64,000 bases of DNA from positions 3,328,001-3,392,000 of the forward strand of contig OZ245838.1 in NCBI GenBank assembly GCA_965228735.1, written 5' to 3'. Both the position numbers and the translations under genes were made by a program. Position 1 is the first letter of the stretch, and each line of letters starts with the position of its first letter. The stretch is from Planctomycetota bacterium. GTDB lineage: Bacteria; Planctomycetota; UBA1135; UBA2386. Below the pieces are notes generated by a model. That model was not told the origin of the DNA. It worked only from the letters and a program-made list of their open reading frames with translations, and did no database searches. This document shows, one piece after another, positions 1-55,462 of the stretch.

Positions 1-390
1 GCGCAGCTGCGTAGCGACGTGATCCCTGGTCGCGGTGTCGAGCGTCGGACCGTCCAGCATCCCGTCGTAGCCGACGAGACCCTGTTGTTCACCCCGGAGC
101 AGGACCTTGGCAGCGGCCTCTGCGCTGGCGAGCGATGCCGCGCTCGCCAGCACCTGAGCGAAGACGCCCCACGGACCGGACCGCTCCGGCGGTTCACCCT
201 CCGCCAGGACGATCTGACTGCGGAACCACTCGACGGCAGCAGCGTGGTCGTCGCGAATGCGATGCAGCATGCGGGCGAACTCGGGCGCCGTCGCCATCAG
301 ATTGTCGATCGCGAGTTCATAGGTCTCGACGGCGGTCATCTCACCGCGCATCAATGAAGTCAGTGAATCGGTCAATCGTTCGTCAGTCAT
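1..390 (-). CDS. DUF2383/PA2169-like ferritin-like four-helix protein (runs off window start)
   Basis: My translation from ATG 390: MTDERLTDSLTSLMRGEMTAVETYELA...RDDH...SGPWG...LRGEQQG..Y; family-typical LxxLLRGExxAVETY and SGxWG; not in ORF track because truncated. Confidence 0.75.
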   Translation of the reverse strand, partial: MTDERLTDSLTSLMRGEMTAVETYELAIDNLMATAPEFARMLHRIRDDHAAAVEWFRSQIVLAEGEPPERSGPWGVFAQVLASAASLASAEAAAKVLLRGEQQGLVGYDGMLDGPTLDTATRDHVATQLR

Positions 391-403
391 GCCCGTCCAG
401 GTA

Positions 404-418
404 ACAACCGCCATGCCA
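404..418 (-). promoter_or_regulatory. sigma54 -24/-12 promoter for DUF2383 gene
   Basis: TGGCAT-GGCGG-TTGT on minus strand, near consensus TGGCAC-N5-TTGC. Confidence 0.6.
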
Positions 419-550
419 GGCGCGCAAAAGCGGCCAGCGCCCGTCCTGTGGCCGCCCCGATGCGAATCGGAACGCCACCTGCCGGCGCGACCAGAACCGG
501 ACATTCCGAACGACGAACCCGCCGCGCGGCTGCGCGGGCGGCCGCGATCC

Positions 551-565
551 TGGCACGGGGCTTGC
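551..565 (+). promoter_or_regulatory. sigma54 -24/-12 promoter for M20 amidohydrolase
   Basis: Perfect TGGCAC-GGGGC-TTGC 28 nt before ATG 594. Confidence 0.8.
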
Positions 566-593
566 ACCGCCTCCGCGCGGAAGCCAGCACCCC

Positions 594-1961
594 ATGACGA
601 CCGAACGACCTGCGACGCAAGGCCAGGAGCGCATCACGGCCGACCTCTATTCCCCGACGGACCACGTCGAACACCACTTCGCGCGCCTCGCGACGATCGG
701 CGTTCAACCGGACGGATCCATCAACCGGATCGCCTGGACCGACGCCGAGTCGCAGGCCATTGCGATGATCCGCTCCGAAGGCGAGGCCTTCGGGCTGACC
801 GGCCGGTACGACGCGATCGGCAACCTGATCCTGTCACTGCCTGGCAAGGCCGAACGCCGCATCCTGGTCGGCTCCCACCTCGACTCGGTGCCGCACGGCG
901 GCAACTACGACGGCGCGGCCGGCGTGGTTGCCGGGCTCGAAGCCATGCGGCCGCTGGTCGCCGATGCGGAGAAGCTGCAAGCCGGCGTCGATCTCGTCGT
1001 GTGGCGCGGTGAAGAACACACCTACAACGCGGTCTACAAGGGCAGCGCGAGCGCGTTCGGTAACTCCGAGACCCACATCCTGCACAACGCCTACGATGGC
1101 GTGTCGCTGCGGGATGCGATCGCGAGTCAGGGGTTCGATCCGTCCTGCATCGACGAGAGCCGCCCTTCGTTGGGGCGCGACTACATCGATTCGATCCTCG
1201 GCTACTACGAGCTCCACATCGAGCAAGGCGTTCGGCTCGAGCGCGAGAACCTCGACCTCGGTGTCGTCACCAGCATCGCTGGTGACCGCCGCTTCCTCGT
1301 CGTCCTCGAGGGTCGGTTCGACCATTCGGGCGCGACCCCGATGGGCACGAACTTTCGTTGCGACTCCAACCTCGCACTCGGCTACATCATCACGCGGCTG
1401 GACGAACTCAGTCGCGATGCGGCCCGCGCGGGCAACGTGTTCACGCAGACCATCGGGATCGTGAATGCCGACCCGGAGATCGACCGCAAGCACCCGGCGG
1501 TGCACAGCAACTCAGTCACCAAGGTCAGCGGCCTCGCGTATTTCACGCTCGACATCATGTCGGCCGACGACACGTTCATGGACTCCTACTCGGCTGACGT
1601 CCTGCGTGCGGTCTGGCAGACCGCGAAGGAGTTCCACGTCAAGGCGGTGATCGAACAGACCGACACGGCGCGCGGCCTCCGTGAACTCGACCCGCGCCTT
1701 CGGAGTCGCCTGATGGCTGCCGCGCAGGCCCGCGACTTCTCGGCGGTCGAGATGCCGAGCGGCGCGGGGCACGACGCCGTGGCTGTGGCGCACGCGGATC
1801 GCGGCCCCCTGGGGGCCATCCCGGTTGGCATGCTGTTCGTCCCGTGCCGCGCCGGCATCAGTCACGCTCCGGAAGAGTTCGCCGAGGCCGATCACGTCGC
1901 GAAGGGAGCGGCGGTGCTCTCCGACGCAATGCGTGACATCGCGCAGCGAGGCGAGATCTAG
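594..1961 (+). CDS. M20 family Zn-dependent hydrolase (N-carbamoyl-amino acid/allantoate amidohydrolase type)
   Basis: GSHLDSVPHGGNYDG, GEE, ELHIEQG, HSGATPM, SGAGHDA, GISHAPEE motifs. Confidence 0.9.
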   Translation: MTTERPATQGQERITADLYSPTDHVEHHFARLATIGVQPDGSINRIAWTDAESQAIAMIRSEGEAFGLTGRYDAIGNLILSLPGKAERRILVGSHLDSVPHGGNYDGAAGVVAGLEAMRPLVADAEKLQAGVDLVVWRGEEHTYNAVYKGSASAFGNSETHILHNAYDGVSLRDAIASQGFDPSCIDESRPSLGRDYIDSILGYYELHIEQGVRLERENLDLGVVTSIAGDRRFLVVLEGRFDHSGATPMGTNFRCDSNLALGYIITRLDELSRDAARAGNVFTQTIGIVNADPEIDRKHPAVHSNSVTKVSGLAYFTLDIMSADDTFMDSYSADVLRAVWQTAKEFHVKAVIEQTDTARGLRELDPRLRSRLMAAAQARDFSAVEMPSGAGHDAVAVAHADRGPLGAIPVGMLFVPCRAGISHAPEEFAEADHVAKGAAVLSDAMRDIAQRGEI

Positions 1962-2308
1962 TCCGCCCGACTCGCGCGATACGTGCGCCAGAGATCGCGC
2001 AGCGTCAGCTGCATCTGCCGGATCACGACGAGGTTGGCCACCACGATCGGCACCCATGCCCACGGGAACACCGTCGCCGGCAGCATCGCCGTCACGAGGA
2101 AGAACGCGAACAGCACGCCCGTCTGCACGGTGAGCTGCTCCGCTGCCGAACGCTCGGCGCGCACCGGGCGGCGCAACGCGCTGCCCGCGGTGACGCGACC
2201 CCGCTCACTGCGCGCGACCTCGAGTCGAGCCGGCGCAGCGACACGTGTCGCACGCGGATTGTTGGTCGTGGCGGCAGTCGGCATCGGGGTCACCGTAGAG
2301 GTCGGCAT
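1958..2308 (-). CDS. small hypothetical membrane protein
   Basis: 116 aa, hydrophobic C-terminal stretch GVLFAFFLVTAMLPATVFPWAWVPIVVANLVVI; GGAG upstream. Confidence 0.55.
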   Translation of the reverse strand: MPTSTVTPMPTAATTNNPRATRVAAPARLEVARSERGRVTAGSALRRPVRAERSAAEQLTVQTGVLFAFFLVTAMLPATVFPWAWVPIVVANLVVIRQMQLTLRDLWRTYRASRAD

Positions 2309-2515
2309 CGTCTTGGCTCCGTTGAGTAGCTCCGCGACGGCGCTCGTGCCTGCACGACCGTCGTCCGGTTGCGAGTTCTGACGCAGACGAGCACCGAAGA
2401 TTCCCCGGATCCGACGAAGTTGTTCGGATCGCCCGGCAGCCGGGCCGCAACTGCCGAGAGCCCAACGGGCGATTCACCCGCATCACCAACGGCATCCGCG
2501 CGGCCGGACCGCGAC

Positions 2516-3334
2516 TCAGCGCCGCCGAAACAGCGCGATCGCGAGGTCGTCCGGCTTGCCGATTCCGCCGGTGCTCTGCATCCGTTCGACGCAGCGTTCG
2601 ACGAGGCGATCCGCCGCGCGCAGCAGCGGCCCCTTGCGCACGACCTCGGTGACCTCGTCGACGTGCACGTTGTCCCACAGGCCGTCGCTCGCGAGCACGA
2701 CCGTGTCCCGCAGCGCGAGCCGGATCGCGCTCGCGATCTCGACGCGCATGCCCGCCATGCCGACGAAGTTGGAGATCACGTGGCGATCCTCGTGCACGAG
2801 CCCCGCGTCGGCGTCGAGCAGGCCGGACTCGACGGCGTAGCCGACGGGCGAGTGGCTCACGGTCTGGTGCTTGATCTTGCCGCGCTGACCGGTGATCAGC
2901 AGCTCCGAGTCGCCGGCGTGATAGCTGCGAAAGCGCTCGCCTTCGATGACGGCCGCGAGCACCGTCGTCGCGGCCCCGCCGGGTCGCTCGAGCAGCTGCT
3001 GGTTGGCCGCGTCGATCCCCGTGAGGATCGCGCTCTGGATCGACTCGACGGTCCCCTCGCTCGCGGCGACGCGATCCGCGATGCAGCGGAGCGTGAGGCG
3101 CGCCGCGAAGTCACCGTCCCCGTGGCCGCCGAGCCCGTCGGCAACGACGATCGCCGTGCACCGATCGTCCCAACGAAACAACCCAGCGACGTCTTCACAA
3201 GAGTCGTCCGCGGTCCGCGACGGGCTCTTCGCAAGCACGACCGCACAGTTGTCGACGCCGCCGCCGGCCGATTCGCGCACGACGCTCGGCGCGCCGCCCT
3301 CGAGCCAGAGCCGGCTGTGCGTCGGGCCGTTCAT
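2516..3334 (-). CDS. PP2C family Ser/Thr protein phosphatase
   Basis: VVADGLGG, HAGDS, LASDG, DDL motifs; ATG 3334 overlaps kinase TGA (ATGA). Confidence 0.9.
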   Translation of the reverse strand: MNGPTHSRLWLEGGAPSVVRESAGGGVDNCAVVLAKSPSRTADDSCEDVAGLFRWDDRCTAIVVADGLGGHGDGDFAARLTLRCIADRVAASEGTVESIQSAILTGIDAANQQLLERPGGAATTVLAAVIEGERFRSYHAGDSELLITGQRGKIKHQTVSHSPVGYAVESGLLDADAGLVHEDRHVISNFVGMAGMRVEIASAIRLALRDTVVLASDGLWDNVHVDEVTEVVRKGPLLRAADRLVERCVERMQSTGGIGKPDDLAIALFRRR

Positions 3335-4128
3335 CTGCCGCTCCGCCGGCGTTCGAGCCGGCGCAGGGTGAGCTTCTTGGCTTCGAGGAAGGCCTCGTAC
3401 ATGTGCGAGGCGTCCCGAAACCGCCGGCGCGTCTCGACCTGCAGCGCACGCTGCAAGAACGGGATCATGTCCGGCGCCGTTCGACGCAGACGGTCGAGAC
3501 CCGCCATCGGCCACTTGTACGGCCAGTCCGGCAGCTTGCCGCTGAGCATCCGGTAGACGATCAAGCCGGCCGAGAACACGTCCGACCGGGCCGACGGGCG
3601 ACCCATCGCCTGCTCGGGCGCGACGTAGCCGATTGTGCCGGACGACGACGCCTGCAATGTCCGCGTCGAGTGCTTGGCGAGGCCGAAGTCCCCGAGCCGC
3701 AACGCGCCGTCGGCGAACAGGATCAGATTGTCCGGCTTGACGTCACAGTGGATGACGCGGTGCTCGTGCGCGTAGGCCAACGCCTCGATCAGCTGCTCGG
3801 CGAAATCGAGCGCCTTGCTCGTCGACATCCGGTAGCCCAGCCGATCGGCCAGACTGCGCTCGCCCTTCGGATAGGCCATCGTCAGCCGCCCGTCGATCAC
3901 CTCGGCGTTCTTGAGCGACAGGATGTTCGGGTGGTCGAGCTTGGCGCTGACCTGGATCTCGCGCTCGAAGTCCGCACGGGTGTCGGGGTCGCCGTCCGCA
4001 AGGGGCACCTTCAGCGCCACGACGACGCGCTCGAGCGTGTCGTAGGCCTCGAAGACGTCCGCGAACCCGCCGCGCGCGAGTCGTCGCTTGAGCTTGTACT
4101 TACCGAGGCGCTGGCCGACGCGGATCAT
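3331..4128 (-). CDS. cytoplasmic Hanks-type Ser/Thr protein kinase
   Basis: [23 protein letters not shown]; kinase domain only, no TM segment. Confidence 0.92.
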
Positions 4129-4204
4129 CCGAGGGCGTCAGTCTGCCGAACGGAGTGCGTTCTTTCCATGTCCAAGTACCGGCGGGTGCCCCTACATTGC
4201 AGCG

Positions 4205-5764
4205 ATGCCGGACGAAATCGACCTCAGTCAGTTCGAGTCCAACCTCAAGCTCGTGAAGCTGCAGGTCGACGATTTCGAACGGATCGTGGACCTGCAGCGA
4301 CGCTGCTTCCCGGGCATGCCGGTCTGGACCAAGGCGCACATCGAGAGCCAGGTCGAGCACTTCCCGGACGGCCAGCTCGGCATCACCTACGACGGCAAGC
4401 TCGTCGCGTCGTCGTGCAGCCTGATCGTCGACTACGACCTGTGCTCCGACTGGCACGACTGGAAGGCCGTGAGCGACGGCGGCTACATCAAGAATCACGA
4501 CGAGAAAGGCGACGTGCTCTACGGCATCGAGATCATGGTCGATCCGGAGTATCGCGGCATGCGGCTCGCGCGCCGGCTCTACGACGGCCGCAAGGAGCTC
4601 GCCCGGGAGCGCAACCTCAAGGGCATCGTGATCGGCGGCCGGATCCCGGGCTACGCCGCCCACAGCAGCGAGATGACGGCGCACGAATACGTGCAGAAGG
4701 TCGAGGCCAAGGTCCTCGTCGACCCGGTGCTCACGGCGCAGCTGGCGAACGGCTTCGAGCTGCGGCAGGTGATCCCCGACTACCTGCCGAGCGACGAGGA
4801 CAGCGCCGGCTGGGCGACCCACATGGAGTGGACCAACGTCGACTACCGCCCGTTCCGCAAGCGGACGATGCAGCCGACCCAGGTCGTCCGGATCTCGACC
4901 GTGCAGTACGGGATGCGCGCCATCTCGACGTTCGAGGACTTCGAGCACCAGTGCGAGTTCTTCGTCGACACGGCGGGGGACTACAAGTGTGACTTCATCA
5001 CGTTCCCGGAGCTGTTCACGACCCAGCTCCTGTCGCTCGTCGAGGCCAAGCGCCCCGGCAAGGCGGCGCGCGCCCTCGCCGACTTCAACGAGCGCTACCT
5101 CGAGTTCTTCACGTCGTTGGCCGTGCGCTACCACGTCAACATCGTCGGCGGGAGCAACTTCGCGGTCGAGGACGAGAAGCTCTACAACGTCGCCTATCTC
5201 TTCCGCCGCGACGGCTCGATCGACAAGCAGTACAAGATCCACGTCACGCCCGCGGAATGGCGCTGGTGGGGCGTGAACGGCGGCAGCACGGTCGAGGTGT
5301 TCGACACCGACTGCGGCCGCATCGCGATCCTCATCTGCTACGACATCGAGTTTCCCGAGCTCGCCCGCATCGCGGCGAAGAAGGGTGCCCAGATCATCTT
5401 CGTGCCGTTCAACACCGACGAACGCTACAGCTACCTGCGCGTTCGCCACTGCGCGATGGCGCGCTGCGTCGAGAACCACGTGTACACGGTGCTGTCCGGC
5501 TGCACCGGCAACTTGCCGCTCGTCGACAACGCCGACCTGCACTACGCCCAGTCGGGCATCTACACGCCGGCGGACATCGCGTTCTCCCGCGACGGCATCG
5601 CGGCCGAGTGCACGGCCAACGTCGAGACGATGATCATGCAGGACCTCGACATCGAGCAGCTGCGCAAGCACCGCTACAAGGGCACGGTGCAGAACTGGCT
5701 CGACCGCCGCACGGATCTGTATCGGGTGCGATACCGCGAGGCGGGCAGCGACTTCGAGGTGTGA
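4205..5764 (+). CDS. bifunctional GNAT acetyltransferase / carbon-nitrogen hydrolase (YhcX-like)
   Basis: [11 protein letters not shown] acetyl-CoA motif; nitrilase triad [16 protein letters not shown]. Confidence 0.92.
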
Positions 5765-5785
5765 ACGCCAGGGGCGGACCGGCGC

Positions 5786-6322
5786 CTACTGAATTGTGAA
5801 CGTCTCGCGGGCGCCGTGGCTCGTGAGCAGCCCCTGCAACGCGTCGGCTCCGACACCTTCCCGCGTTCGGCACGATACGAGACAACCGCCGCGACGCACC
5901 TGCTCGACGCGCAGCGCGGCCTCGTTCTCCGGAATCCCGAGCCCGACGAGCGCGCCGAGCAAACCGCCGGCGCCCGCGCCGGCGGCCGCGCCGCCCATGG
6001 CGGCGAGGAACGGGCCGACGGTGAGCACGCCGAACGGCCCGGCCAGCGCCGCCGCCGCGAGCCCGAACAGGGTCGCGCCGACCGCGGATCCGATCGCAGC
6101 GGCTTCCTCTGGCTTGCCCGGCCCATTCTCGAGCAGACCTCGAGCCGCGCCGCTGTCGGCCATGACGATGCCGATGTCGTCCGCATCGACGTCGAGTTCA
6201 CGGAGCTTGGCGACGGCCGCGCCGGCCGCGCGCGGCTCTTCGAAAACCGCGACCACGGTCGCCGCGGCGGCTGGAGTCGGGTGATCGGAGAACTCGTCGG
6301 AGGGGGTGGAGTCGGTGTTCAT
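5786..6322 (-). CDS. general stress protein 17M/YflT-like membrane protein with glycine zipper
   Basis: VVAVF..A..AV..L, Gly/Ala-rich GGLLGALVGLGIPE..A, GGCLVS pattern; start at ATG 6322. Confidence 0.75.
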   Translation of the reverse strand: MNTDSTPSDEFSDHPTPAAAATVVAVFEEPRAAGAAVAKLRELDVDADDIGIVMADSGAARGLLENGPGKPEEAAAIGSAVGATLFGLAAAALAGPFGVLTVGPFLAAMGGAAAGAGAGGLLGALVGLGIPENEAALRVEQVRRGGCLVSCRTREGVGADALQGLLTSHGARETFTIQ

Positions 6323-6368
6323 GGCTTCTACGGGCGGTGCTTCGTTCGGTTGGCGGCCGCGGTTGCGG

Positions 6369-6710
6369 TCAGCCTGACCCGGGCGACGGCCGCGCGAACG
6401 CTGCCGGGGCGGCCATCGCCAGCTGCACCGACTGCCAGGCCTCGGCGAGGTCGTGGAAACTGCGTTCGATGCGCCGCTGCGAGTCCTGCCAGCCCTCGAG
6501 GCAACGCTGCAGGCGCAGGATCGCGTTCTCCGCGCGGTCGCAGCGATCCTGGAACTCCTGCAGGAACGCGGCGCCGACCTTGCGGCGGTCGGGGTTGAGG
6601 TCCGGGTCGCGGGCGAACTCGCGCGCGTCCTCGAGACGGGCGCGCCAGCGCTCGAGGCGACAGTGCAGGGCGTCGACCTCGAGACGCAGTTCTTTGGCGG
6701 ATTCACTCAT
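6369..6710 (-). CDS. small coiled-coil hypothetical protein
   Basis: MSESAKELRLEVDALHCRLERW... helical 113 aa, directly after a sigma54 promoter. Confidence 0.6.
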   Translation of the reverse strand: MSESAKELRLEVDALHCRLERWRARLEDAREFARDPDLNPDRRKVGAAFLQEFQDRCDRAENAILRLQRCLEGWQDSQRRIERSFHDLAEAWQSVQLAMAAPAAFARPSPGSG

Positions 6711-6723
6711 GGAGCAGGAAGTC

Positions 6724-6738
6724 ACAAGATCCGTGCCA
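6724..6738 (-). promoter_or_regulatory. sigma54 -24/-12 promoter
   Basis: TGGCAC-GGATC-TTGT on minus strand, 13 nt before ATG 6710. Confidence 0.7.
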
Positions 6739-6854
6739 GAAGTAGCGTCAGAACATCGGTGAGCGCGGAGCTGGTTCGAACTGGCCTTGGGAACCGGGTT
6801 GCGGCACCGTAGGAACATCGGAGACCGGCAGTTCGCGTTCCTCCGACCGGCCCC

Positions 6855-8342
6855 ATGACTTCCGATTCCGACTCTCGCCCTTCCCGTCGGCCGCGCATCA
6901 CCATCGCGCTGCCGAACGGCGCGCTGCGCGACCGCCTGCTCGAGGCGCTGCAGAAGGCGGACGTCGACCTCGACGTCGTCGACGCCGCCTCGGCGATGTC
7001 CGGGGTGGAACAGGCCGAGGGCGACATCGTGCTGCTCGGCCCGGGCCAGGTGCGAAAAGCGAACCTCGACGAGCTCGGTGAGGTCGCGCGCTCGGACGAC
7101 GAAGCCGGGCTCGCCGTCGTCGGTGAAGACGACCCGGCCAAGCGCGCCAAGCTCGTCGCCGCGGGGTTCTCGAGCGTGCTCAGTACTGATCAGTCCGAGG
7201 CCGACCTCGCGGCGTCGCTCGAGGCGCTCGCGGCGGCGGAGGCCGAGGGCGGCGTCGGTGGGCCCGAGGTCGGCGGCGCCGGGGTCGAACCGCGGCTGGC
7301 CGATTTCCTCACGCGCAGCCCGCGCATGCAGGAGTTCGTCGAACTCGTGCGGCGGGTGATCCCGGCGGACACGACGCTGCTCATTCTGGGACCGACCGGC
7401 GTCGGCAAGGAGCACCTCGCGCGCGCCATCCATGGCGAGAGCACCCGCGCGAAGCGACCGTTCGTGACCGTCAACTGCGCGGCGCTGCCCGAGCAGCTGC
7501 TCGAAGCCGAGCTGTTCGGCCACGCGAAGGGCGCGTTCACCGGCGCCGAGCGCGCGCGCAAGGGCCGCTTCGAGCTCGCAAATCGCGGTACGCTGTTCCT
7601 CGACGAAATCGGCGAGATGCCGCTGCATCTGCAGGCCAAGCTGCTCACCGTGCTGCAGCGCCACGAGGTCACGCCGATCGGCTCCGACCAACCGATCAGG
7701 GTCGACGTGCGCGTCGTCGTCGCGACGAATCGCGATCTGCAGGAGGAAGTCGCGGCCCGGCGCTTCCGCGAGGACCTGTTCTTCCGCCTCAACGTCGTGC
7801 CGCTCGAGATCCCGGCGTTGGCCGCACGCGCTGACGACATCCCGGAGCTCGTAGGCCGCTTCATCCAGCACTTCCGCGCCACGATGCCGGTCTCGAACGT
7901 CACCGCGATCGCCGACGACGCGCTCGAGCTGTTGATGCACTACTCGTGGCCCGGCAACATCCGCGAGCTCATCAACGTGATCGAACGCGCGATGCTGCTC
8001 GGGCGCGGAACTCGCATCGAGTGCGCCGATCTGCCGGCCGCCGTCACCGGCGGGAGCCCTGGCGACAGCGACGGCGACGAAGCGGGGTCGGCGTCCGCGG
8101 CGACGTCGCCACTCGGGCCGTCGTTGCCGCGATCACCCGCGCCGGACCTCGACCTCGAGCAACCGATCAAGGCCACCCGCGAACGCGCCGTCGCGAACGC
8201 CGAACGCGCCTACCTCGACGCGGCGCTGCGCCGGACGGGCGGCCAGGTCGGCGAGGTCGCGAAGATCGCCGGCATCAGTCCGCGCGCGCTCTACGAGAAG
8301 ATGAAGCGCTACGAGCTGCGCAAAGAGGATTACCGCGGCTGA
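6855..8342 (+). CDS. sigma54-dependent enhancer-binding protein with degenerate receiver domain
   Basis: GPTGVGKE, ELFGHAKGAFTGA, LFLDEIG, WPGNIREL, C-terminal Fis HTH; N-terminal REC-like segment reads DIVLLG where the phospho-Asp is expected. Confidence 0.93.
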   Translation: MTSDSDSRPSRRPRITIALPNGALRDRLLEALQKADVDLDVVDAASAMSGVEQAEGDIVLLGPGQVRKANLDELGEVARSDDEAGLAVVGEDDPAKRAKLVAAGFSSVLSTDQSEADLAASLEALAAAEAEGGVGGPEVGGAGVEPRLADFLTRSPRMQEFVELVRRVIPADTTLLILGPTGVGKEHLARAIHGESTRAKRPFVTVNCAALPEQLLEAELFGHAKGAFTGAERARKGRFELANRGTLFLDEIGEMPLHLQAKLLTVLQRHEVTPIGSDQPIRVDVRVVVATNRDLQEEVAARRFREDLFFRLNVVPLEIPALAARADDIPELVGRFIQHFRATMPVSNVTAIADDALELLMHYSWPGNIRELINVIERAMLLGRGTRIECADLPAAVTGGSPGDSDGDEAGSASAATSPLGPSLPRSPAPDLDLEQPIKATRERAVANAERAYLDAALRRTGGQVGEVAKIAGISPRALYEKMKRYELRKEDYRG

Positions 8343-8443
8343 TCGGCGGACCGGTGGTCCCGGTTCCGAAGCTTCGGAAGCGCTCGTTCTGACGTCGTCG
8401 CGCGCGAGCGCCGAATGACCGATGCCGTGGCGATGTCGGTGCA

Positions 8444-8458
8444 TGGCACGCCCCTTGC
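8444..8458 (+). promoter_or_regulatory. sigma54 -24/-12 promoter
   Basis: Perfect TGGCAC-GCCCC-TTGC, 14 nt before ATG 8473. Confidence 0.8.
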
Positions 8459-8472
8459 GACTGGAGGGGGCG

Positions 8473-9465
8473 ATGAGTCATTCCAGCCCCAATTGGACCC
8501 TAGACACCTACGGCTGCTCGCGCGCCGGAACGCGCTCCGGGCCGAACGGCACGCAGCCACTGAACGGCGATCACTTCCTCGTGACCGAGCTGAGGCGCGC
8601 GGCCGAAGTGCGGCGGGCAAGCCCGGACCGCGTGTCCGAAGGACGGCACGACGGTACGAGTCAGGCGCACGCGCTCGTCGTCGCCGACGGCGTGAGCGGT
8701 CACGCCGGCGCCGCGGAGGCGAGCGCGCTCGTCGTCGACGAGATCATGCACCAGATGCTCAACGCGGTGCCGTGGCAGCGCGACCTCGACCTCGACGCCG
8801 AGACCGCACTGCGTCGGGAGCTGCGCAACGCCGCCGAGCAGTGCAGTCGTCGCCTCGCCGCCGAGGCGCGCGAGCATCCCAGGCTCGACGACATGGGCTC
8901 GACGCTCACGATGGCGTTCGTGCGGCCGCCGTACGCGTTCTTCGTGCATGCCGGCGACAGCCGCGCGTATCTCGTGCGCGACGGCGAGATCCGGCAGCTG
9001 ACGCGCGATCACACGCTGGCCAACCGCCTCGCGGAGCGCGGCATCCTGTCGATCGAGGAAGCCCGCCGCTCGCCGTTCGCCAACTCGTTGTGGAACGTCA
9101 TCAGCAGCCACGGGACGGTCGAACCCGAGACATCGTCCATTCAGCTCCAGAAGGGCGATGCCCTGCTCCTGTGTTCGGACGGGCTCACCCACGAACTCGA
9201 GGACGCCGACCTGCTCCGCGCGATCACGGCGCACGGCTCCGCGCAGGCCGCATGCGAAGCACTCGCCGATGCCGCGCGCGACCGCGGTGAGTCCGACGAC
9301 GTCACAGCGACGATCGCGAGAGTCGTCGACGACGCCCGGGCGAACGAAACGTCGGCGACGCCCCCGAAGCGCCGACGTGCGGAACGGCGATCGCCACCGA
9401 CCCCGACGCCGAATTTCGTCGCGGCCGCGAACCGACCCCGAGAGGCCCGCGCCGCAGGCCAGTAG
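8473..9465 (+). CDS. PP2C family Ser/Thr protein phosphatase
   Basis: VVADGVSG, HAGDSRAY, QLTRDH, LCSDGL, DDVT. Confidence 0.9.
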   Translation: MSHSSPNWTLDTYGCSRAGTRSGPNGTQPLNGDHFLVTELRRAAEVRRASPDRVSEGRHDGTSQAHALVVADGVSGHAGAAEASALVVDEIMHQMLNAVPWQRDLDLDAETALRRELRNAAEQCSRRLAAEAREHPRLDDMGSTLTMAFVRPPYAFFVHAGDSRAYLVRDGEIRQLTRDHTLANRLAERGILSIEEARRSPFANSLWNVISSHGTVEPETSSIQLQKGDALLLCSDGLTHELEDADLLRAITAHGSAQAACEALADAARDRGESDDVTATIARVVDDARANETSATPPKRRRAERRSPPTPTPNFVAAANRPREARAAGQ

Positions 9466-9490
9466 CCAGCAGCTCTCCACGCAGGAATCC

Positions 9491-9991
9491 TTGCCCCTAC
9501 CCCACCTCGACACCCGCGCTGCCCCTGACGTTCTCGAGGCCGCCGTCCAGCTCGCGGTCAGGCTCGTCCGCCGCGAGACACCGGCCCATGCGCCGGGCAC
9601 ATTGCTGACGCTCGGCGACGCCAACGCCGTCGTGCGCTGCTCCCGCCATATGGAGGGGCTCGCGCGCGCCGGCGACGAACGGCCTCCGGAGTTGGCATCC
9701 GCCCACCTGCTCGACCCGATCGCGCAGAGCACGATCGAACGCCTGGCCCCGCCGCCGCGCGCCATCGTCGTGCGCGCAGCGGGTCAGATCGAGTCGATCG
9801 TGCGCGAGGCCGACGACCCGGACCAGACCCCCTGGCTGCCGCCGACCACCGTCTCCGCGGTCATGGTCACGCGCGCCACCGACACGATCGCGATCGCCGT
9901 GCCCGCGGACGAAGACAGCATCCGCCTGTTCCACGACGGCCGACTCGTGGACCAACTCACCGCCGACGCCGGTAGCATCGCGGATGCGTGA
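9491..9991 (+). CDS. degenerate diadenylate cyclase (DisA_N/DAC)-fold protein
   Basis: VLEAAVQLAV..GTLLTLGD..V..SR..AIVV..G.I..A..TRATDTIAIAV..IRLFHDG scaffold; DGA and RHR motifs absent; TTG start after AGGA (start uncertain). Confidence 0.65.
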   Translation: MPLPHLDTRAAPDVLEAAVQLAVRLVRRETPAHAPGTLLTLGDANAVVRCSRHMEGLARAGDERPPELASAHLLDPIAQSTIERLAPPPRAIVVRAAGQIESIVREADDPDQTPWLPPTTVSAVMVTRATDTIAIAVPADEDSIRLFHDGRLVDQLTADAGSIADA

Positions 9992-11145
9992 GCGAGCGCC
10001 CGACAACGACCCGGCAATTCTGGCGACCGCGCCGCATCGCGCTCGCTCTGCTCGCGCTGCTGCTCGGCGCGGCCGCCACGTGGCTCGCCTGCCGCTGGAC
10101 GTTCGTCGTTCGCCTGCTGACCTACCCCTACGAGGCGCCGACGACCACGGTCGACTGGTATCAACCGGTCGAACCGATCCCGGGCGATGGCACCGCGCAA
10201 CCGATCGCGACCGAATCGCCGGCGCAACTCGGCCTCTCGCTCACCGCACTCGAAGCCGCCGCCGACTGGGCCGACCGCCACAACACGACGGCGTTCCTCG
10301 TCGCCCGCGCGGGTCGCATCGCCTTCGAACGTTACAGGCGTGGCGGTTCGGCCACGACGCCGACGATCTCCCACTCGATGGCCAAGACGCTGCTCGCGCT
10401 GCTCGTCGGCATCGCGATCGAGCGTGGGGAGATCGCCGGCCTCGATGAGCCGATCGGCGAACTGCTGGCCGAGTGGCGCAACGACCCTCGCGGCGCGATC
10501 ACGCTGCAGCAGCTGCTGACGATGACGAGCGGCCTCGAGGGCGACAGCCTCGAGGATGGCTGGCTGCCGCCGATGGCGCGGCTGCACCTCGAAACCGACC
10601 TGCTGCCGACGCTGCTCGCCCATCCGGCCACCGGCCCGCCGGGCGTCGTGTTCGACTACAACAACTTCAACAGCCAGCTCGTCGGCCTCGCACTCGAACG
10701 CGCGACCGGGCAACGCTACGCGGAGCTGCTGTCTCGCCGCCTCTGGCAGCCGATCGGCGCGCGCGATGCCGGCATCTGGCTCGATCGGCCCGCGGGCAAC
10801 GCCAAGATCTACGGTGCGGTGATCGCGACCGCCCGCGACTGGTTGCGCATCGGCGAGCTCGTCCGCATGCGCGGCCGCGCGCACGGGATCCAGGTCGTTC
10901 CCCGCGCGTGGTTCGAGACGATCGAGCGGCCCTCGGCGCTGCAGGCCGAGTACGGCGTTCACATCTGGCTCGGCGGCGGTCCACCGACCGACCTGCCGCG
11001 GTACGTGTATCTCGACGGCAAGTCGAAGCAGCGCGTGTTCGTCGTGCGCTCGCACGAGCTCGTCATCGTCCGCACGGGCGAGAACGCGCGCGGTTGGCGC
11101 GACGACGAGCTCGTGGCGCTCGTGCTCGCCGCGGTCGAACGCTGA
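9988..11145 (+). CDS. serine hydrolase, beta-lactamase class C-like
   Basis: SMAK (SxxK), LLTMTSG, FDYNN (YxN); N-terminal hydrophobic anchor. Confidence 0.88.
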   Translation: MSERPTTTRQFWRPRRIALALLALLLGAAATWLACRWTFVVRLLTYPYEAPTTTVDWYQPVEPIPGDGTAQPIATESPAQLGLSLTALEAAADWADRHNTTAFLVARAGRIAFERYRRGGSATTPTISHSMAKTLLALLVGIAIERGEIAGLDEPIGELLAEWRNDPRGAITLQQLLTMTSGLEGDSLEDGWLPPMARLHLETDLLPTLLAHPATGPPGVVFDYNNFNSQLVGLALERATGQRYAELLSRRLWQPIGARDAGIWLDRPAGNAKIYGAVIATARDWLRIGELVRMRGRAHGIQVVPRAWFETIERPSALQAEYGVHIWLGGGPPTDLPRYVYLDGKSKQRVFVVRSHELVIVRTGENARGWRDDELVALVLAAVER

Positions 11146-12525
11146 TCAGGTCGGCAACAACCAGCTGGTACTGCTCTGCTTGCTGTCCGTCGCGAGCGGC
11201 ACGTGCACGACGAACGCCGCGCCGCCGAGCGCGGAGTCCTCGCACCAGACGTGGCCGCCGGAGCGTTCGGCGATGGCGCGACACACCGCGAGGCCGATGC
11301 CCGCGCCGGCCGGCTTCTCCGTGAGGTGATCCGACAACTGCGTGAACTTCTCGAAGATCGTCGACCGGTCGTCGGCGGGCACGCCGGGTCCGGAGTCCTC
11401 GACGCGCAGCTCGAACTCGTCGCCGATGACGCGCCCGGCGATCCGCACGTCGCCCCCCGACGGCGTGAACTTGACCGCGTTATCGACCAGCTGAAAGACG
11501 AGCTGTTGCCATTGACGTTCATCGAGCTTCGCTTTGCGCTCGCCGACCGGCAGGTCGAGTTCGAGCTCGATGGCGCGCGTTGCCATCCGGCCCGCCAATC
11601 CGTCGACGACGCGTTGCACGACGGCGTTGGCGTCGAGGGCCGTCACGGCGAACTCGGCCTCGCCCGACTGCAGCTGCAGGAAGTCGAACAGGCCGTCGAC
11701 GAGGTTGGAGATGCGCACGCTCTCGTCGTGGATCACGCTCACGAACTCGTCCCACTCCATGCTCTCGCCGGGAACCATCGTGCCGAGGATCTCGGAGTAC
11801 GCGCGGATGCTCGTGAGCGGCGTCCGGAGCTCGTGCGAGACACTCGACAGGAAGCGATCCTTGAGCCGCTGCAGCTCGTGGTTGCGCGTCGTGTCGACGA
11901 ACAGGAACACGGTGCCGAAGTCCTGGCCCGTGACGCTCGAACGGACCGGCACGGCCGCCAGGTCGAACATGCGATCACCGCTCGGGACCGAGGCGTGCCG
12001 GACCGTCGGGCGTTCGCCGGCTCCGGTGGCGGCATCGCCGTCGAGATCGCGCAAGGCCTCCCACGATTCGCGCGTGCGATCCGCCAGTTCGTCGGGCAGC
12101 ACGTCCCACAACGTCTGCCCGATCGGCTCGACCCCGGCGTCGATCAGCCCACGGCACGCCGCGGGGTTGGCGAGCACGATCTCGCCCGCGGGATCGACGA
12201 CCACGACACCCTCGAGCAGCGACTCGACGACCGACTCCGAACGATCGCACGCGAGTTCGAGCGCGAGGATGCGCGCCGCGGCCTCGCGATCGTCATCGGA
12301 GTAACTGCGCGACGCGTGGCCATCCCGGAGCCCGCATCGGCGTTCGACCACCGCGACGAGAGCCGCCGCGAGGCCACAAGACACGGCCCCCATCGAGCTC
12401 GCCCCGAGACCGTGGGCGACCGCGCCGAAGACGAGCCCGAATCCGACCGTACGCAGCGCTGCCGCGAGGCCGTGTCGACGACCTTCCCTGGCCCGCGCTG
12501 CGGGCTCTGGGCGGGTTCTGGGCAT
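11146..12525 (-). CDS. membrane PAS sensor histidine kinase
   Basis: SHELRTPL, DNAVKF, DSGPG, GAGIGL; PAS EGVVVVD..ANPAA; start trimmed to ATG 12525 with GGAG. Confidence 0.92.
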   Translation of the reverse strand: MPRTRPEPAARAREGRRHGLAAALRTVGFGLVFGAVAHGLGASSMGAVSCGLAAALVAVVERRCGLRDGHASRSYSDDDREAAARILALELACDRSESVVESLLEGVVVVDPAGEIVLANPAACRGLIDAGVEPIGQTLWDVLPDELADRTRESWEALRDLDGDAATGAGERPTVRHASVPSGDRMFDLAAVPVRSSVTGQDFGTVFLFVDTTRNHELQRLKDRFLSSVSHELRTPLTSIRAYSEILGTMVPGESMEWDEFVSVIHDESVRISNLVDGLFDFLQLQSGEAEFAVTALDANAVVQRVVDGLAGRMATRAIELELDLPVGERKAKLDERQWQQLVFQLVDNAVKFTPSGGDVRIAGRVIGDEFELRVEDSGPGVPADDRSTIFEKFTQLSDHLTEKPAGAGIGLAVCRAIAERSGGHVWCEDSALGGAAFVVHVPLATDSKQSSTSWLLPT

Positions 12526-12654
12526 AAGGGCTCCAGTCCGAGTATCGATCCCCCCGGCAGACCCCTTGACGGGGGATTCCCCTGGGTCGGAACGCCTGTA
12601 GTCCGGGGTCGCATCGCGCCGATGAACGAAGCCGATCCAGCGAGGAACTCCGAA

Positions 12655-15348
12655 ATGGTCGTGCTCGAACTCTGCCTTCTGCCCGTGCTGTCGTTCCAGG
12701 AACCCGTCCCGGCCCAGCCGGCGACGACGACTCCTGCCCAAGAAACGCCCGTCGCATCGGCCGATCCGAAGCCCACGATCGACGCCACCGATCCGGCCCG
12801 CTGGCTGCCCGCGTCGACGTTGTTCGCGGTCACGTTCCGGCTCGGCAACGACACGGACCTGTCGGGCCTGCGCGCGCGCCTGCGGGACCTCGACCCGATG
12901 GGCACGATGGACCAGGCCGTCACCGAGATGGAGTCTCATCTCGGGCAACACGGCGTCGCGATGGACGACGTCATGGAACTGCTGCGTGGCGGCGTTGCGA
13001 TCGGCGTCACGGAGCTCGGCCCGAAGCCGCAGTTCGTGTGCGTCGCCGATCTCTCGCAGTGTGAGGATCCGATCCGGATGAAGGCGCAGGAGTTCCTCGC
13101 GAACAACACGGCGGCGGACTCCCACGGTGGGATCCGCGGGGACCGGATGATCGTCGCGAGCTCGGCCGAGCTGCTGGACGCGACGGCCCAAATCGCGGAC
13201 TCCCAGAGCGCGGACTCGGGCAGCCAGTCACTGGCCGCAACGGACGGGTACCGGAGTGCCTGCGACCGCGCTCCGCTCGCCGGGTCTGCCGCGATGACCG
13301 TCTTCGTGCAGCCGAACGCGCTCGTGGCACAGCTCATGGCGATGGTGCCGGAAGCCCAGCGAGCCGCGGCCGAGCGCGTCACGAACGCCCTGCAGATCGA
13401 GGCCATGGACCACGTCGTGTTCCGGGCCCAGGTCGACGCGCGAGATCTGCACTTCGCCGCAAGCTGCGCGCTGCCCGAAGGCGACAGCCTGCTCGGCGCG
13501 TTCTTCGGCAACCCGCAGATGCTCAGCGAGTCGCTCGCGGGCTACGTCCCGAAGAGCGCCACGGAGTTCACGTTCGCCGCCACCGACATCAGCGCGGTCG
13601 TCCGCTCGAGCCTCGAGCTCCTGAAGACGGCCGAGCCCGGCATGGGCGTCATGGCCGACATGATGGTGCAGCAGATCGGTGAGAAGGCCGAGATCGACAT
13701 CATGGACGTCGTCGTCGACGGTTTCTCGGGTCGCTCGATCGGCCTGCGGGTACCCGCCGGCACGGCGACGATGATCGGCCTCGAGGATGGCAAGGAGTTC
13801 GCAGGCGCGATCGCGAAGCTGGTGGCCGCGGCGGAGCTGCCGGTCGAAACGACGACCGCGAACGACGTCACGGTCTATCAGTTCCCGGAGGGTCAGCTGC
13901 CCGTCCCGATCTCGTTCGCGACGCTCGGCAACTGGTTCTGCATCACGGAAGGCGACGCCACGCTCGCCGCGATCGCGAAGCAGATCGACCACCCGACCAA
14001 GAACGAGGCCGCGTTCAGCGCGCTGCGCGATCGGCCGGCCGGCGCGACGATGGTTCTCGGCGCGACCGAGTGGTCGACCTCGATGACGTCCCGTCGCACG
14101 GCGAACGGAGTCGTCTGGCAGGGGACCATCGGCCTAGTGCCCGGTGGCGGCGACATCGACCTGACGATGGATTCGCCGGCGCCGCCGGAGCAGGTCATGG
14201 CGCTCGAACAGGCCGAGAACGACGCCGAGTCGACGACGGTCCCACAACTCCTGCGTCTCGCCAAGGCCGAGCACGCCGGCGTCGCCGCGCGCGCGACGTG
14301 GCTGCTGCGCCGGCGCGAGTCACCCGAAGCGCGCAAAGCACTCGGTGATCTGGCTACCGACAGCAAGCACGCCGAGGTACGGGTCCAGGCGTTCCACGCG
14401 CTGCTGCGCCTCGGCAACGCGCAGAGCGTGCCCGTCGCGCTGGCCGGGATCGACGACGAGAGCGTCGAGGTCCGCACGCTCGCCGCGCAGCTGCTCGGCA
14501 AGCTGCGGCGCCCCGAGGCGAAGGGCGCGCTGCTTGCGCTCGTGTCGGAACGCGCCAAGATCGCGGGCCCGGGAGAATCGACCACCGACCTGCAGGCGGC
14601 TCTGCTCGCGCTCACCGATCTGGAGGCCGCCGACGAACTGCTGCCGGTGGCGACCGTGCTCGACGGCAGCCGCGCCGAAGGCTTCGGCGAGGCCCTGACG
14701 TTCTACTTCCAGACGCTGTCGCCGCAGCTCGAGCCGAACGACGAGACGCCCGTCATGGTCGCGGTCCTGTCGCACAGCGAACCGGTGCTGCGACGCTACG
14801 CGATCGGGCGACTCAGCGAGCTGCGTGACCTCACGACCGTGCGCGCGCTCGAGGCGCGCCTCGCGTCGGAGGGCCCGGAGCTGCAGCCGCTCGTGGAGCT
14901 CGCGCTCGCCCAGATCCGCCGGCAGAAGCACGGTGAGGCGGAGGCCTCGGAGTCGTTCGTGGCGCAGACCAAGGCGCGCTGGAACGCGCTGACGGCGCAG
15001 CAACGGCTCATCGCCTCCGCGGTCGGCGGCGTCGTCGGACTCGGCGTGCTCATCTGCCTCGTCGTGATCGTTCGCCGCGGCAGCAGCCGCCGACGCGGGC
15101 GCAGGAGCGCGAGCGACCTGGTCGCGCCGTCGGAAGAGTACCTCGACGACCTCGAGGCCGAGTCCGACGAACTCGCGGACGAGGCCGAGGGCATCTACGA
15201 CGAGGCCGAGTCCTACGGCGAGGGCGACGACGACGAAGAGTGGCAGGACGGCGAGTACGAGGACGACGGCGAGGTCGACGAGATCTACGGCGACGATTCG
15301 TACGACGAGTCGGAAGAACTGGAAGAGCAGGACGCGCGCTACCACTGA
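12655..15348 (+). CDS. exported HEAT-repeat protein with C-terminal TM helix and acidic Tyr-rich tail
   Basis: HEAT-like VRVQAFHALLRLG, VRTLAAQLLGKL, LRRYAIGRL; TM GGVVGLGVLICLVVIV then RR; D/E-rich tail; GAGGA before ATG 12655 (12622 alternative). Confidence 0.75.
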   Translation: MVVLELCLLPVLSFQEPVPAQPATTTPAQETPVASADPKPTIDATDPARWLPASTLFAVTFRLGNDTDLSGLRARLRDLDPMGTMDQAVTEMESHLGQHGVAMDDVMELLRGGVAIGVTELGPKPQFVCVADLSQCEDPIRMKAQEFLANNTAADSHGGIRGDRMIVASSAELLDATAQIADSQSADSGSQSLAATDGYRSACDRAPLAGSAAMTVFVQPNALVAQLMAMVPEAQRAAAERVTNALQIEAMDHVVFRAQVDARDLHFAASCALPEGDSLLGAFFGNPQMLSESLAGYVPKSATEFTFAATDISAVVRSSLELLKTAEPGMGVMADMMVQQIGEKAEIDIMDVVVDGFSGRSIGLRVPAGTATMIGLEDGKEFAGAIAKLVAAAELPVETTTANDVTVYQFPEGQLPVPISFATLGNWFCITEGDATLAAIAKQIDHPTKNEAAFSALRDRPAGATMVLGATEWSTSMTSRRTANGVVWQGTIGLVPGGGDIDLTMDSPAPPEQVMALEQAENDAESTTVPQLLRLAKAEHAGVAARATWLLRRRESPEARKALGDLATDSKHAEVRVQAFHALLRLGNAQSVPVALAGIDDESVEVRTLAAQLLGKLRRPEAKGALLALVSERAKIAGPGESTTDLQAALLALTDLEAADELLPVATVLDGSRAEGFGEALTFYFQTLSPQLEPNDETPVMVAVLSHSEPVLRRYAIGRLSELRDLTTVRALEARLASEGPELQPLVELALAQIRRQKHGEAEASESFVAQTKARWNALTAQQRLIASAVGGVVGLGVLICLVVIVRRGSSRRRGRRSASDLVAPSEEYLDDLEAESDELADEAEGIYDEAESYGEGDDDEEWQDGEYEDDGEVDEIYGDDSYDESEELEEQDARYH

Positions 15349-20146: not shown

Positions 20147-20890
20147 ATGCAGACAGGCCTTCGCAAAGTCCTGATGGCGTCGTTGCTCGCGGCGTTCGTC
20201 GGGCAGACGACGCTGGTCTACGCGGACGACACCGCGGACCGCACGCCACCGCTCACGGGGGATGCGCTCCGTGGCCGCGAATTGTGGCACGAGCACAACT
20301 GCCAGGCGTGCCATCAGATCTACGGCTTCGGCGGCTTCCTCGGCCCCGACCTGACGAACGCGGGCTCGCGCCTCACGCAGTCGCGCTACGACGAGATCCT
20401 CACGCAGGGGAACGCGCAGATGCCGGCGTTCCACCTGGAGCCGGGCGAGATCAACGCGATCAAGGCGTTCCTCGTCGCGCTCGACAAGACCGGCATCGGC
20501 GTGCCGCGCGCGACGCTGCCGCCCGAACCCGCGAAGGTCTACGACGCGCTCACCGAGCTCACGGCCAACGCCGATTCCAACGTGCAGCAGGGCCTGCAGC
20601 AGTTCCGCGCGATCTGCGCCGCGTGCCACACGCCGCTGTGCGCGACGCCGCTCGGCCCCAACACCGCGCCCGATCTCAGTGACGTTTGCGACCGGCTCGA
20701 CAACGCGGCGATCGCCAAGGTGATCGCGGAAGGGCGACCGCTCCGCGGCATGCCGCCATGGCCCCTCGGCGACGTCATCGGCGAACAGCTCGTGCCGTTC
20801 CTCGAGTGGCTGCGTGACAACCGCGCGACGCTGCGCGACTCGGTCGGTGATGCCACGCGCTCGGGCCTGCCCTGGTGGGAGTTCAAATGA
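20147..20890 (+). CDS. membrane-anchored diheme cytochrome c, NorC-like
   Basis: GRELWHEHNCQACHQIYGFGGFLGPDLTN...MP resembles NorC; second heme CAACH..APDL..GMP. Confidence 0.85.
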   Translation: MQTGLRKVLMASLLAAFVGQTTLVYADDTADRTPPLTGDALRGRELWHEHNCQACHQIYGFGGFLGPDLTNAGSRLTQSRYDEILTQGNAQMPAFHLEPGEINAIKAFLVALDKTGIGVPRATLPPEPAKVYDALTELTANADSNVQQGLQQFRAICAACHTPLCATPLGPNTAPDLSDVCDRLDNAAIAKVIAEGRPLRGMPPWPLGDVIGEQLVPFLEWLRDNRATLRDSVGDATRSGLPWWEFK

Positions 20891-22305: not shown

Positions 22306-22353
22306 CGTGTAGCGGCTCGATCGCCGACGCGCGCGAACGGCCGCAGCGCCGCG

Positions 22354-55453: not shown

Positions 55454-55462
55454 GAGTCACCC

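Follow-up and report, generated by a model that had tools for sequence, protein, structure and literature searches.

A sigma54 enhancer-binding protein whose receiver domain has lost its phosphorylation residues is encoded in a 64,000-nucleotide stretch of a Planctomycetota genome (GenBank assembly GCA_965228735.1, contig OZ245838.1, positions 3,328,001 to 3,392,000), here called the window. The source genome, G000 in our set, is a single contig of 7.19 Mb with 69% G+C, in which the window is G000:C1:3328001-3392000. We believe that this activator binds predicted palindromic enhancers and drives an osmotic or general stress regulon, with a small ligand or ion at the pseudo-receiver as its most likely input, and we give this reading as a whole a probability of roughly 0.55. 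Its regulon part, a sigma54 osmotic or general stress regulon run by this activator, we regard as quite probable.

The original prediction had proposed a sigma54 stress system controlled by Ser/Thr phosphorylation. All of its elements were located: four intergenic -24/-12 sites, an intact sigma54 activator, a soluble Hanks-type Ser/Thr kinase, two PP2C phosphatases and a dead diadenylate cyclase (DAC) fold. It did not mention an M20 carbamoylase behind the site at 551, a GNAT-nitrilase fusion, or an extension of about 16 kb upstream of the window that holds a second activator; we refer to the whole cluster as the island. Contigs from three public runs (X2-X4) each tile positions 1-12,500 in two overlapping pieces with no differing letters, which rules out an assembly artefact as the source of the region. 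Domains were assigned by a Pfam scan of 15 window proteins (1-16.5 kb) and 19 upstream proteins.

The activator and its family

By its domains, the protein encoded at 6855-8342 is a sigma54 enhancer-binding protein, with DNA binding predicted. It is composed of a pseudo-receiver (residues 13-130, approximately), the linker LADFLTRSP (148-156), an AAA+ domain (PF00158, 237.9 bits) and a Fis-type helix-turn-helix domain (PF02954, HTH_8). The GAFTGA motif is intact at residues 226-231, as had been claimed, and the other AAA+ motifs are also in place: Walker A at residue 179, Walker B at 247, the arginine finger at 303 and sensor II at 365.

Scoring of the N-terminus against the Pfam receiver (REC) model, which had been suggested as a check, gave no match at E<=0.1, and the receiver fold emerged from profile and model comparison. 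A profile of 33 homologues aligned to solved receivers with an E-value of 1e-6. The AlphaFold model (predicted local distance difference test score 79.7) has the (beta-alpha)5 order with five strands and five flanking helices, and receivers were the top Foldseek matches to the N-terminal model (E 2.5e-5). A canonical receiver, as outlined in the passages of PMC12632262 on this domain, carries five active-site residues, DD, D, T/S and K, whose loss defines a pseudo-receiver. On the alignment with DrrD these positions are Leu19-Pro20 (DD), Gly62 (D), Gly90 (T) and Thr111 (K). The aspartate of DIVLLG is the structural one at the start of beta3, and the phospho-acceptor position is Gly62. The earlier description of a REC-like domain without the acidic pair and with DIVLLG at the phospho-aspartate region thus agrees with the alignment, by which the N-terminus is an aspartate-less pseudo-receiver with all five phosphorylation residues lost.

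A survey of the family and its neighborhoods across Planctomycetota, also proposed earlier, found members in 47 of 401 genomes, a lower bound as nine candidates were scored per genome, and no conserved kinase-PP2C neighbor. Among 1.84 billion proteins, 272 representatives were found at E<=1e-10. In a quick tree with a midpoint root, the family is one clade apart from 12 canonical activators of G000. Its 43 type A rows form a well-supported group, and the 15 type B rows, the window protein among them, form a grade. The family profile has two strong matches in G000, at 131 and 106 bits, followed by one at 35 bits, among the 23 AAA+ proteins of this class. One of the two is the window protein and the other a type A paralogue at G000:C1:3312655-3314097, about 15 kb upstream of the window, which keeps D and has lost DD and K. 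It is divergent from a sigma54-driven gene for a secreted Lys-rich protein that has no Pfam match. Opposite many type A activators, too, small secreted proteins akin to this one are encoded.

At the D position, type B rows have Arg, His, Asp and Gly in 40, 20, 13 and 7% of cases, and type A rows have Asp, Ser, Glu and Gly in 36, 36, 16 and 9%; at the K position, Lys is outside the four commonest residues in every group. The domain is a pseudo-receiver throughout the family, yet the aspartate is kept in that 36% of type A rows. Conserved instead are the motif RAxLLAAGxxxVL (alpha4-beta5), the linker LxDFx[ST]xSP and a near-constant recognition helix. Ser or Thr stands at linker position 145 in all 15 type B rows and in 93% of the type A rows. 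Canonical activators mostly have Gly at this conserved position.

A word-based homologue search returned two relatives, and one homologue, whose label points to Planctomycetota, is 61% identical. Family members carry the database label "DNA-binding NtrC family response regulator", and in the Atlas the activator falls at 0.91 into a cluster of sigma54 regulators, 18% of whose members have REC, which we take as a lead only. A metagenome scan with the linker region found no family member; with the whole activator it found three among 80 loci, none of them with a kinase or PP2C match in the flanks. In a literature search largely outside subscription journals, no description of the family, its enhancer or its regulon was found, and a term search of PMC4395418 returned no passage on such activators. 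Judged by these comparisons, this is a real subfamily of pseudo-receiver sigma54 activators without earlier annotation, with a predicted enhancer and a predicted stress regulon.

Predicted enhancer and sigma54 regulon

The four -24/-12 sites that the original prediction placed around one activator are all present, intergenic and clustered. The genome-wide scan (TGGCAY-N5-TTGY) gave 40 sites in G000, compared with 10 for a spacer of 4 and 17 for a spacer of 6, and two rpoN genes score above the family cut-off (G000:C1:258549 and 6643601). Four sites fall within 10 kb against 0.056 expected, a clustering above chance for a region picked after the fact, and seven of the 40 fall within 24 kb. Across the whole window, matches with at most one mismatch are not above chance (5 versus 2.96 expected; 19 of 100 shuffles reach 5), a list to which the site at 404-418, with its two mismatches, does not belong. 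From the start of each site to the start codon the distance is 28, 43, 28 and 29 bp for the sites at 404, 551, 6724 and 8444.

Within 450 bp upstream of the activator gene, 21 of 57 family loci have a sigma54 motif on the divergent strand and none of the 57 has one on the same strand; random windows have one in 50 of 2280 cases (2.2%). The palindrome ATCGGAR-N7-YTCCGAT was learned from 55 loci of other genomes, so that G000 stands outside the training set, and the top word pair was present in 12 of these loci as compared with at most 7 in 10 shuffles. In G000, it exceeds 11 bits at 7 of 9 island promoters versus 3 of 71 other intergenic sigma54 sites (p=1.3e-6), an enrichment that holds only with a spacer of 7. 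All four window promoters carry it. Outside the island, palindrome and sigma54 site precede the genes for a six-BON protein and a DUF1328 protein and an unnamed 145-aa gene near a second DUF2383, with a weaker match (9.8 bits) before a Dps-like ferritin gene. In many loci the palindrome is 10-110 bp upstream of the activator start. In G000 it overlaps the start, where autorepression of the activator gene would be possible. One further palindrome-like site (4149-4169, 11.7 bits) between the kinase and GNAT-nitrilase genes has no adjoining sigma54 site and was rejected as an enhancer, being within background (3.3% of random intergenic windows score above 10 bits and 1.3% above 12 bits).

The likely targets within the window are the DUF2383-like gene with the universal stress protein (USP) gene, the M20 amidase gene, the coiled-coil and YflT-like genes, and PP2C-2 with the dead DAC gene. 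The DUF2383-like gene, downstream of the site at 404-418, runs past the window edge and is followed by the USP gene; together they are likely a direct target. The same is likely of the M20 amidase gene, whose orthologue adjoins a type B activator in the relative G002, also with a sigma54-like site. Behind the site at 6724-6738, the 113-aa helical protein gene is likely a target, and the YflT-like gene, 47 bp away from it, is likely co-transcribed. PP2C-2, with its sigma54 site and predicted enhancer, is likely a direct target, in agreement with the earlier claim of one sigma54-driven PP2C, and the DAC-like gene is likely co-transcribed with it. Beyond the window, the regulon would include the PII-SSS-carbamoyltransferase-amidotransferase operon and the BON and DUF1328 genes. 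The activator and its upstream paralogue, which has a similar recognition helix, would serve the same sites. As to the DUF2383 and YflT outputs named earlier, matches to both families exist, and both score below the cut-offs (Table 1).

The stress-marker genes (BON, DUF1328, Dps-like and DUF2383-like) each have a sigma54 site and a palindrome, and their regulation is predicted. The neighbors of family members in relatives were annotated for a hand-chosen subset (30, 25 and 17 proteins, selected by eye from gene lists). They include OtsAB and dodecin in G002, an aspartokinase-EctA-EctB cluster in G349, an OpuAC betaine ATP-binding cassette transporter with PA2169 and Sll1863 family proteins in G380, Dps and YjbJ/CsbD in G387 and an OsmY-like BON protein in G063, and further MscK-like channels, sucrose-phosphate synthase, USP, DUF1328-type proteins and ATP-grasp/GGT clusters. 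These differing osmolyte routes behind one type of regulator point to an osmotic or general stress role rather than to one pathway, and the targets would answer osmotic or general stress. A sigma54 stress regulon with an activator outside the His-Asp relay, as originally proposed, is supported by the palindrome, the predicted targets, the lost receiver residues and the lack of a cognate kinase.

At two loci of family f13 genomes in which the activator family was not found (L181 and L191), sigma54 motifs precede CsbD-like genes that adjoin PP2C-2 homologues. The sigma54 stress regulon may thus exceed this activator.

Table 1. Features in the first part of the window (positions in the window; palindrome scores in bits)
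Feature	Position	Strand	Evidence or remark
5' part of a 230-aa DUF2383/PA2169-like four-helix-bundle gene	1..390	-	PF09537 26.6 bits, cut-off 30.8
sigma54 -24/-12 site TGGCATGGCGGTTGT	404..418	-	TGGCAT-N5-TTGT; two mismatches
Predicted enhancer palindrome	466..486	.	11.4 bits
Predicted enhancer palindrome, common to two divergent promoters	490..510	.	16.0 bits
sigma54 -24/-12 site TGGCACGGGGCTTGC	551..565	+	perfect match
M20 hydantoinase/carbamoylase-family amidase	594..1961	+	TIGR01879 230.9 bits, cut-off 204
PP2C-1, second gene of the kinase-PP2C module	2516..3334	-	PF13672
Soluble Hanks-type Ser/Thr kinase, HCD, non-RD	3331..4128	-	PF00069
GNAT and carbon-nitrogen hydrolase fusion	4205..5764	+	PF00583, PF00795
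YflT-like small membrane protein	5786..6322	-	PF11181 17.1 bits, cut-off 26.2
113-aa helical (coiled-coil) protein	6369..6710	-	position behind the site at 6724-6738
sigma54 -24/-12 site TGGCACGGATCTTGT	6724..6738	-	TGGCAC-N5-TTGT; divergent from activator gene
Predicted enhancer palindrome over activator start codon	6846..6866	.	11.2 bits
sigma54 enhancer-binding protein, 495 aa	6855..8342	+	Pfam, structure model, alignments
Predicted enhancer palindrome	8350..8370	.	11.4 bits
Predicted enhancer palindrome	8373..8393	.	15.2 bits
sigma54 -24/-12 site TGGCACGCCCCTTGC	8444..8458	+	perfect match
PP2C-2, intact metal-binding motifs	8473..9465	+	PF13672 68.5 bits; alignment
DAC-fold protein without DGA and RHR motifs	9491..9991	+	NF041371 34.9 bits, cut-off 430

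Input to the activator

The activator would bind the palindrome 50-120 bp upstream of the -24 element, and the bound protein would loop to the sigma54 holoenzyme and open the promoter, steps which are established for enhancer-binding proteins. It may also repress its own gene through the palindrome at its start. The pseudo-receiver would be switched by something independent of the linked genes. No partner gene is conserved beside the family, which favors a signal read by the activator alone. Direct allostery by a ligand or ion on the pseudo-receiver is our tentative choice, at somewhat less than an even chance, and the first guess would be a cytoplasmic ion or osmolyte, as K+/glutamate or an osmolyte would suit the outputs.

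The original prediction had the activator gated by the kinase and the phosphatases or by a partner protein. In the first of these schemes, the kinase at 3331-4128 would phosphorylate the linker at Thr153 or Ser155, the PP2Cs would reset it, and PP2C-2 would provide feedback. Catalytic motifs are intact in the kinase and in both PP2Cs, and none of the three has a strongly hydrophobic segment, in line with the soluble kinase of the prediction. Two of the three PP2Cs detected in G000 are in this island, one of them with the sigma54 site and enhancer mentioned above, and the linker Ser/Thr is kept nearly throughout the family. A precedent is GlnR of Streptomyces, which the passage on it in PMC12632262 describes as a pseudo-receiver regulator modified on Ser/Thr. 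A PP2C-1 orthologue was found in 16 of 46 genomes with the activator family versus 48 of 354 without it, and in 7 of 9 type B genomes, an enrichment confounded by kinship and genome size.

The genomic linkage argues otherwise. Eighty kinase loci were retrieved and 15 dropped as other kinases (31-41% identity), which left 65 orthologue loci from Planctomycetota, Gammaproteobacteria, Acidobacteriota, Myxococcota and others. PP2C-1 lies within 1.1 kb downstream of the kinase in 45 of them, and the activator family is in the fetched flanks of none, which marks the pair as an independent module. The pair is linked to the activator in one of 16 other sampled genomes holding both (G013), most of the 16 being drafts, in which a position on separate contigs is no proof of distance. 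Of nine type B genomes, four have the kinase and five (86-92% complete) yielded none, two of the five having two type B activators each, and PP2C-1 is unmatched in 30 of 46 family genomes. In G002 the kinase is on a different contig from both activators, and G022 has the kinase but yielded no activator. Of 55 other activators, two have a histidine kinase within 6 kb, five an unrelated Ser/Thr kinase, two a PP2C-2-like gene and none PP2C-1. With 79 Ser/Thr kinases in G000, one near the activator would be common.

Even the linked cases allow two interpretations. A distance of 6-7 kb separates the pair in G013 from a type A activator, which fits gating, but the pair stands at the distal end of a unit that runs from a sigma54 site through a secreted-protein gene to kinase and PP2C, and so appears as an output of the regulon. 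At locus L078 the pair follows an MscK-like gene orthologous to the gene after the type A activator in G013. In G071 (L218:9339-12467, one of seven further kinase loci examined), the gap between the pair and the next gene downstream, for a different sigma54 activator that has Ala at D, is 50 bp, and several sigma54 motifs lie around them. Against a reset by phosphatase, the PP2C-2 homologues adjoining type B activators in G349 and G387 have lost their catalytic motifs. No sigma54 site was found upstream of the kinase in G000. The linkage proposed between kinase, PP2C and activator is therefore largely not conserved in relatives, and we consider Ser/Thr gating rather unlikely. Its full form, a general stress response of a fourth design in uncultured Planctomycetota, in which sigma54 and a dedicated aspartate-less activator family with an enhancer of its own are switched by Hanks-kinase phosphorylation at the linker Ser/Thr (Thr153) and reset by PP2Cs, one of which is regulon-encoded, seems unlikely to us, although its sigma54-regulon half taken alone is likely. 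More likely the neighboring kinase and phosphatases are passengers or targets of the stress cluster. The kinase-PP2C module is often found among ATP-grasp, CorA and MscK-type genes and so counts, loosely, as part of one stress kit with them.

Some observations touch on these proteins. Pseudo-phosphatases without metal-binding motifs are encoded beside type B activators at L166:4862-5860 and L168:15110-16030. Many kinase orthologues (L082, L123, L140, L220) have C-terminal double zinc ribbons that are absent from the window kinase. Elsewhere in G000, one sigma54 activator is fused to a kinase and two have FHA/GAF-looking N-termini by eye (G000:C1:5901281, 6165111 and 1972883), which suggests other Ser/Thr-to-sigma54 routes in this genome.

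A histidine kinase with a PAS domain at 11146-12525 had been named as a possible cognate sensor. All five relatives tested have it, even the two in which no activator was found, and its orthologue in G013 is 2.8 Mb from the activator; this independent distribution and distance rule it out. Nor does a cognate histidine kinase stand out for the activator family, with such a kinase within 6 kb in two of 55 loci.

Alternatively, a partner protein acting in trans, or a target such as the coiled-coil protein, PP2C-2 or the dead DAC, might hold the activator off in the manner of PspA-PspF or FleN-FleQ. At least 7 of 13 type B activators have a gene for a small helical protein immediately upstream, a PP2C-2-like gene lies behind the divergent promoter of a type B activator or adjoins one and is degenerate in two of three cases, which fits a binding role, and the alpha4-beta5 motif is the best-conserved surface of the receiver. 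Yet opposite the type A activators, which make up 43 of 58 rows, the genes are for secreted proteins or enzymes and not for a cytoplasmic partner, and the small helical proteins resemble Sll1863-type stress outputs and vary in orientation. Such proteins flank several type B activators, one of them of the Sll1863 family; the 113-aa protein itself has no significant similarity to them (at best 6.6 bits). A predicted complex of the activator (receiver and AAA+) with the 113-aa protein scored 0.00, which is evidence neither way. We find a partner of this kind doubtful. The activator might equally be constitutive, with the regulon set by its level through another sigma factor, autorepression at the start palindrome or proteolysis. 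This would suit the palindromes at or near activator starts and the ECF sigma factor with its anti-sigma inside the island, and PMC12632262 includes a description of constitutively active pseudo-receiver regulators controlled by abundance. The family-wide retention of pseudo-receiver and linker suggests a regulated conformational input instead, and no regulator gene is conserved nearby, so that we consider this, too, rather unlikely. A narrow metabolic regulon for amide, carbamoyl and gamma-glutamyl compounds, in which a pathway metabolite is sensed and the stress markers are incidental, appears very unlikely. Although the strongest enhancer in G000 precedes the PII-SSS-carbamoyltransferase-amidotransferase genes, and the M20 carbamoylase, deiminase-like gene and ATP-grasp/GGT genes recur, relatives place unrelated osmolyte routes and stress proteins at the activator, and the operon is also present in G022, where the activator was not found.

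We thus favor a ligand- or ion-responsive activator of a stress regulon, and several points weigh against it. Two island promoters, those of a USP gene at G000 3314119 and at 3327596, have no palindrome, and roughly half of the 55 loci used for training score below 10 bits for it. With 23 AAA+ proteins of this class in G000, another activator possibly serves some island promoters. The labels DUF2383, YflT and coiled-coil given to window genes are below threshold. Many type A loci have no recognizable stress gene, and the neighbors annotated are a chosen subset. The one argument for ligand sensing is that no partner gene is conserved, and about ten loci are contigs shorter than 11 kb with incomplete flanks.

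Neighboring genes, known systems and meaning

The DAC-like protein has PRA and PPTT where the DAC of a relative has DGA and GARH, the catalytic motifs of diadenylate cyclases being known as DGA and RHR. This bears out the call of a dead fold and rules out active synthesis of cyclic di-AMP on motifs. No longer fused form was found in a weak search, and no solved structure was matched by sequence. Before the GNAT-nitrilase gene no sigma54 site was found, which makes it a candidate regulon member at most. Overlapping the DAC-like stop is a gene for a serine beta-lactamase-fold hydrolase (9988-11145; PF00144, no class C cut-off reached), and a large HEAT-repeat protein with an acidic tail (about 12600-15348) is divergent from the histidine kinase. 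Farther on, genes at 20174-26548 look by eye like cytochrome c with heme-copper/NorB genes and like a molybdopterin oxidoreductase accompanied by iron-sulfur and TorD-like genes, and two at 53705-56632 resemble DNA topoisomerase VI subunits B and A.

The part of the island upstream of the window contains two USP genes, a deiminase-like gene, DinB, the ECF sigma factor with its anti-sigma, cyanophycinase and an operon of PII-like, SSS, carbamoyltransferase and asparagine-synthase-like genes. This operon (G000:C1:3321336-3327098, 1-7 kb upstream of the window) comprises PII-like, 179-aa, SSS, ATCase-like and AsnB-like genes, and it is preceded by the best-scoring enhancer in G000 and a sigma54 site. 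The ATCase-like protein keeps the carbamoyl-phosphate motifs and has NSIAW in place of TRIQKER, the aspartate-binding residues of ATCase. Among 151 genomes of the order, only G022 shares this set of five genes. N-carbamoyl-glutamine amide is listed as an osmolyte in a passage of PMC7824335. Speculatively, this osmolyte or another N-carbamoyl amino-acid amide could be produced and recycled by the operon together with the M20 carbamoylase.

Among known systems, FleQ of Pseudomonas aeruginosa is close in design: it exemplifies, in the passage of PMC12632262 that treats it, a sigma54 activator with a pseudo-receiver, under control of FleN and c-di-GMP. Both proteins combine pseudo-receiver, AAA+ and helix-turn-helix domains without His-Asp input, and FleQ structures match activator residues 54-492 (E 3e-68). 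However, the window activator has no match to the FleQ domain PF06490 at E<=0.1, its recognition helix and palindrome are different, and its predicted targets are stress genes instead of flagellar ones. A FleN-like neighbor was not noticed in the gene lists, which were read without a model-based search. NtrC and ZraR share the AAA+ core (ZraR is the best structure match, E 3.5e-77) and the divergent sigma54 promoter, but the window activator lacks DD, D, T and K and a cognate histidine kinase. Like PspF, which has no N-terminal domain and PspA as its partner, it is divergent from a sigma54-driven helical protein gene; unlike PspF it has an N-terminal domain, and the small helical protein has no PspA match. 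Myxobacteria have FHA- or kinase-fused sigma54 activators with Ser/Thr input. The window activator differs from these and from GlnR in that it has no FHA or kinase domain and no conserved kinase linkage.

The outputs resemble those of the sigmaS, sigmaB and EcfG general stress regulons, which depend on alternative sigma70-family factors: Dps, OsmY/BON, CsbD/YjbJ, DUF1328, USP and trehalose synthesis. Here, in contrast, they would be read by sigma54 with an enhancer-binding ATPase. The island kinase is of the Hanks type, unlike that of the sigmaB partner switch, and no STAS anti-anti-sigma or RsbW-type kinase was found among the 15 window and 19 upstream proteins scanned. Within Planctomycetota, a passage of PMC12316311 reports that MscS and USP genes of Planctomycetia are enriched in sigma54 sites, and in Rhodopirellula baltica, according to one of PMC2754498, rpoN may control some of the general stress genes. 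Those passages name no pseudo-receiver activator or enhancer, and this family would supply both where it is carried.

The activator family would explain the sigma54 sites predicted earlier before MscS and USP genes in the phylum. PMC12632262, in its part on such domains, poses the switching of bacterial pseudo-receivers between on and off as an open question, and here a pseudo-receiver is tied to an ATPase with a simple readout, a sigma54 promoter with a 21-bp site. The enhancer also points to unstudied enzymes that possibly make osmolytes. Since the known general stress responses use alternative sigma70-family factors, one based on sigma54 with a defined activator and enhancer would be a testable master regulator in Planctomycetota.

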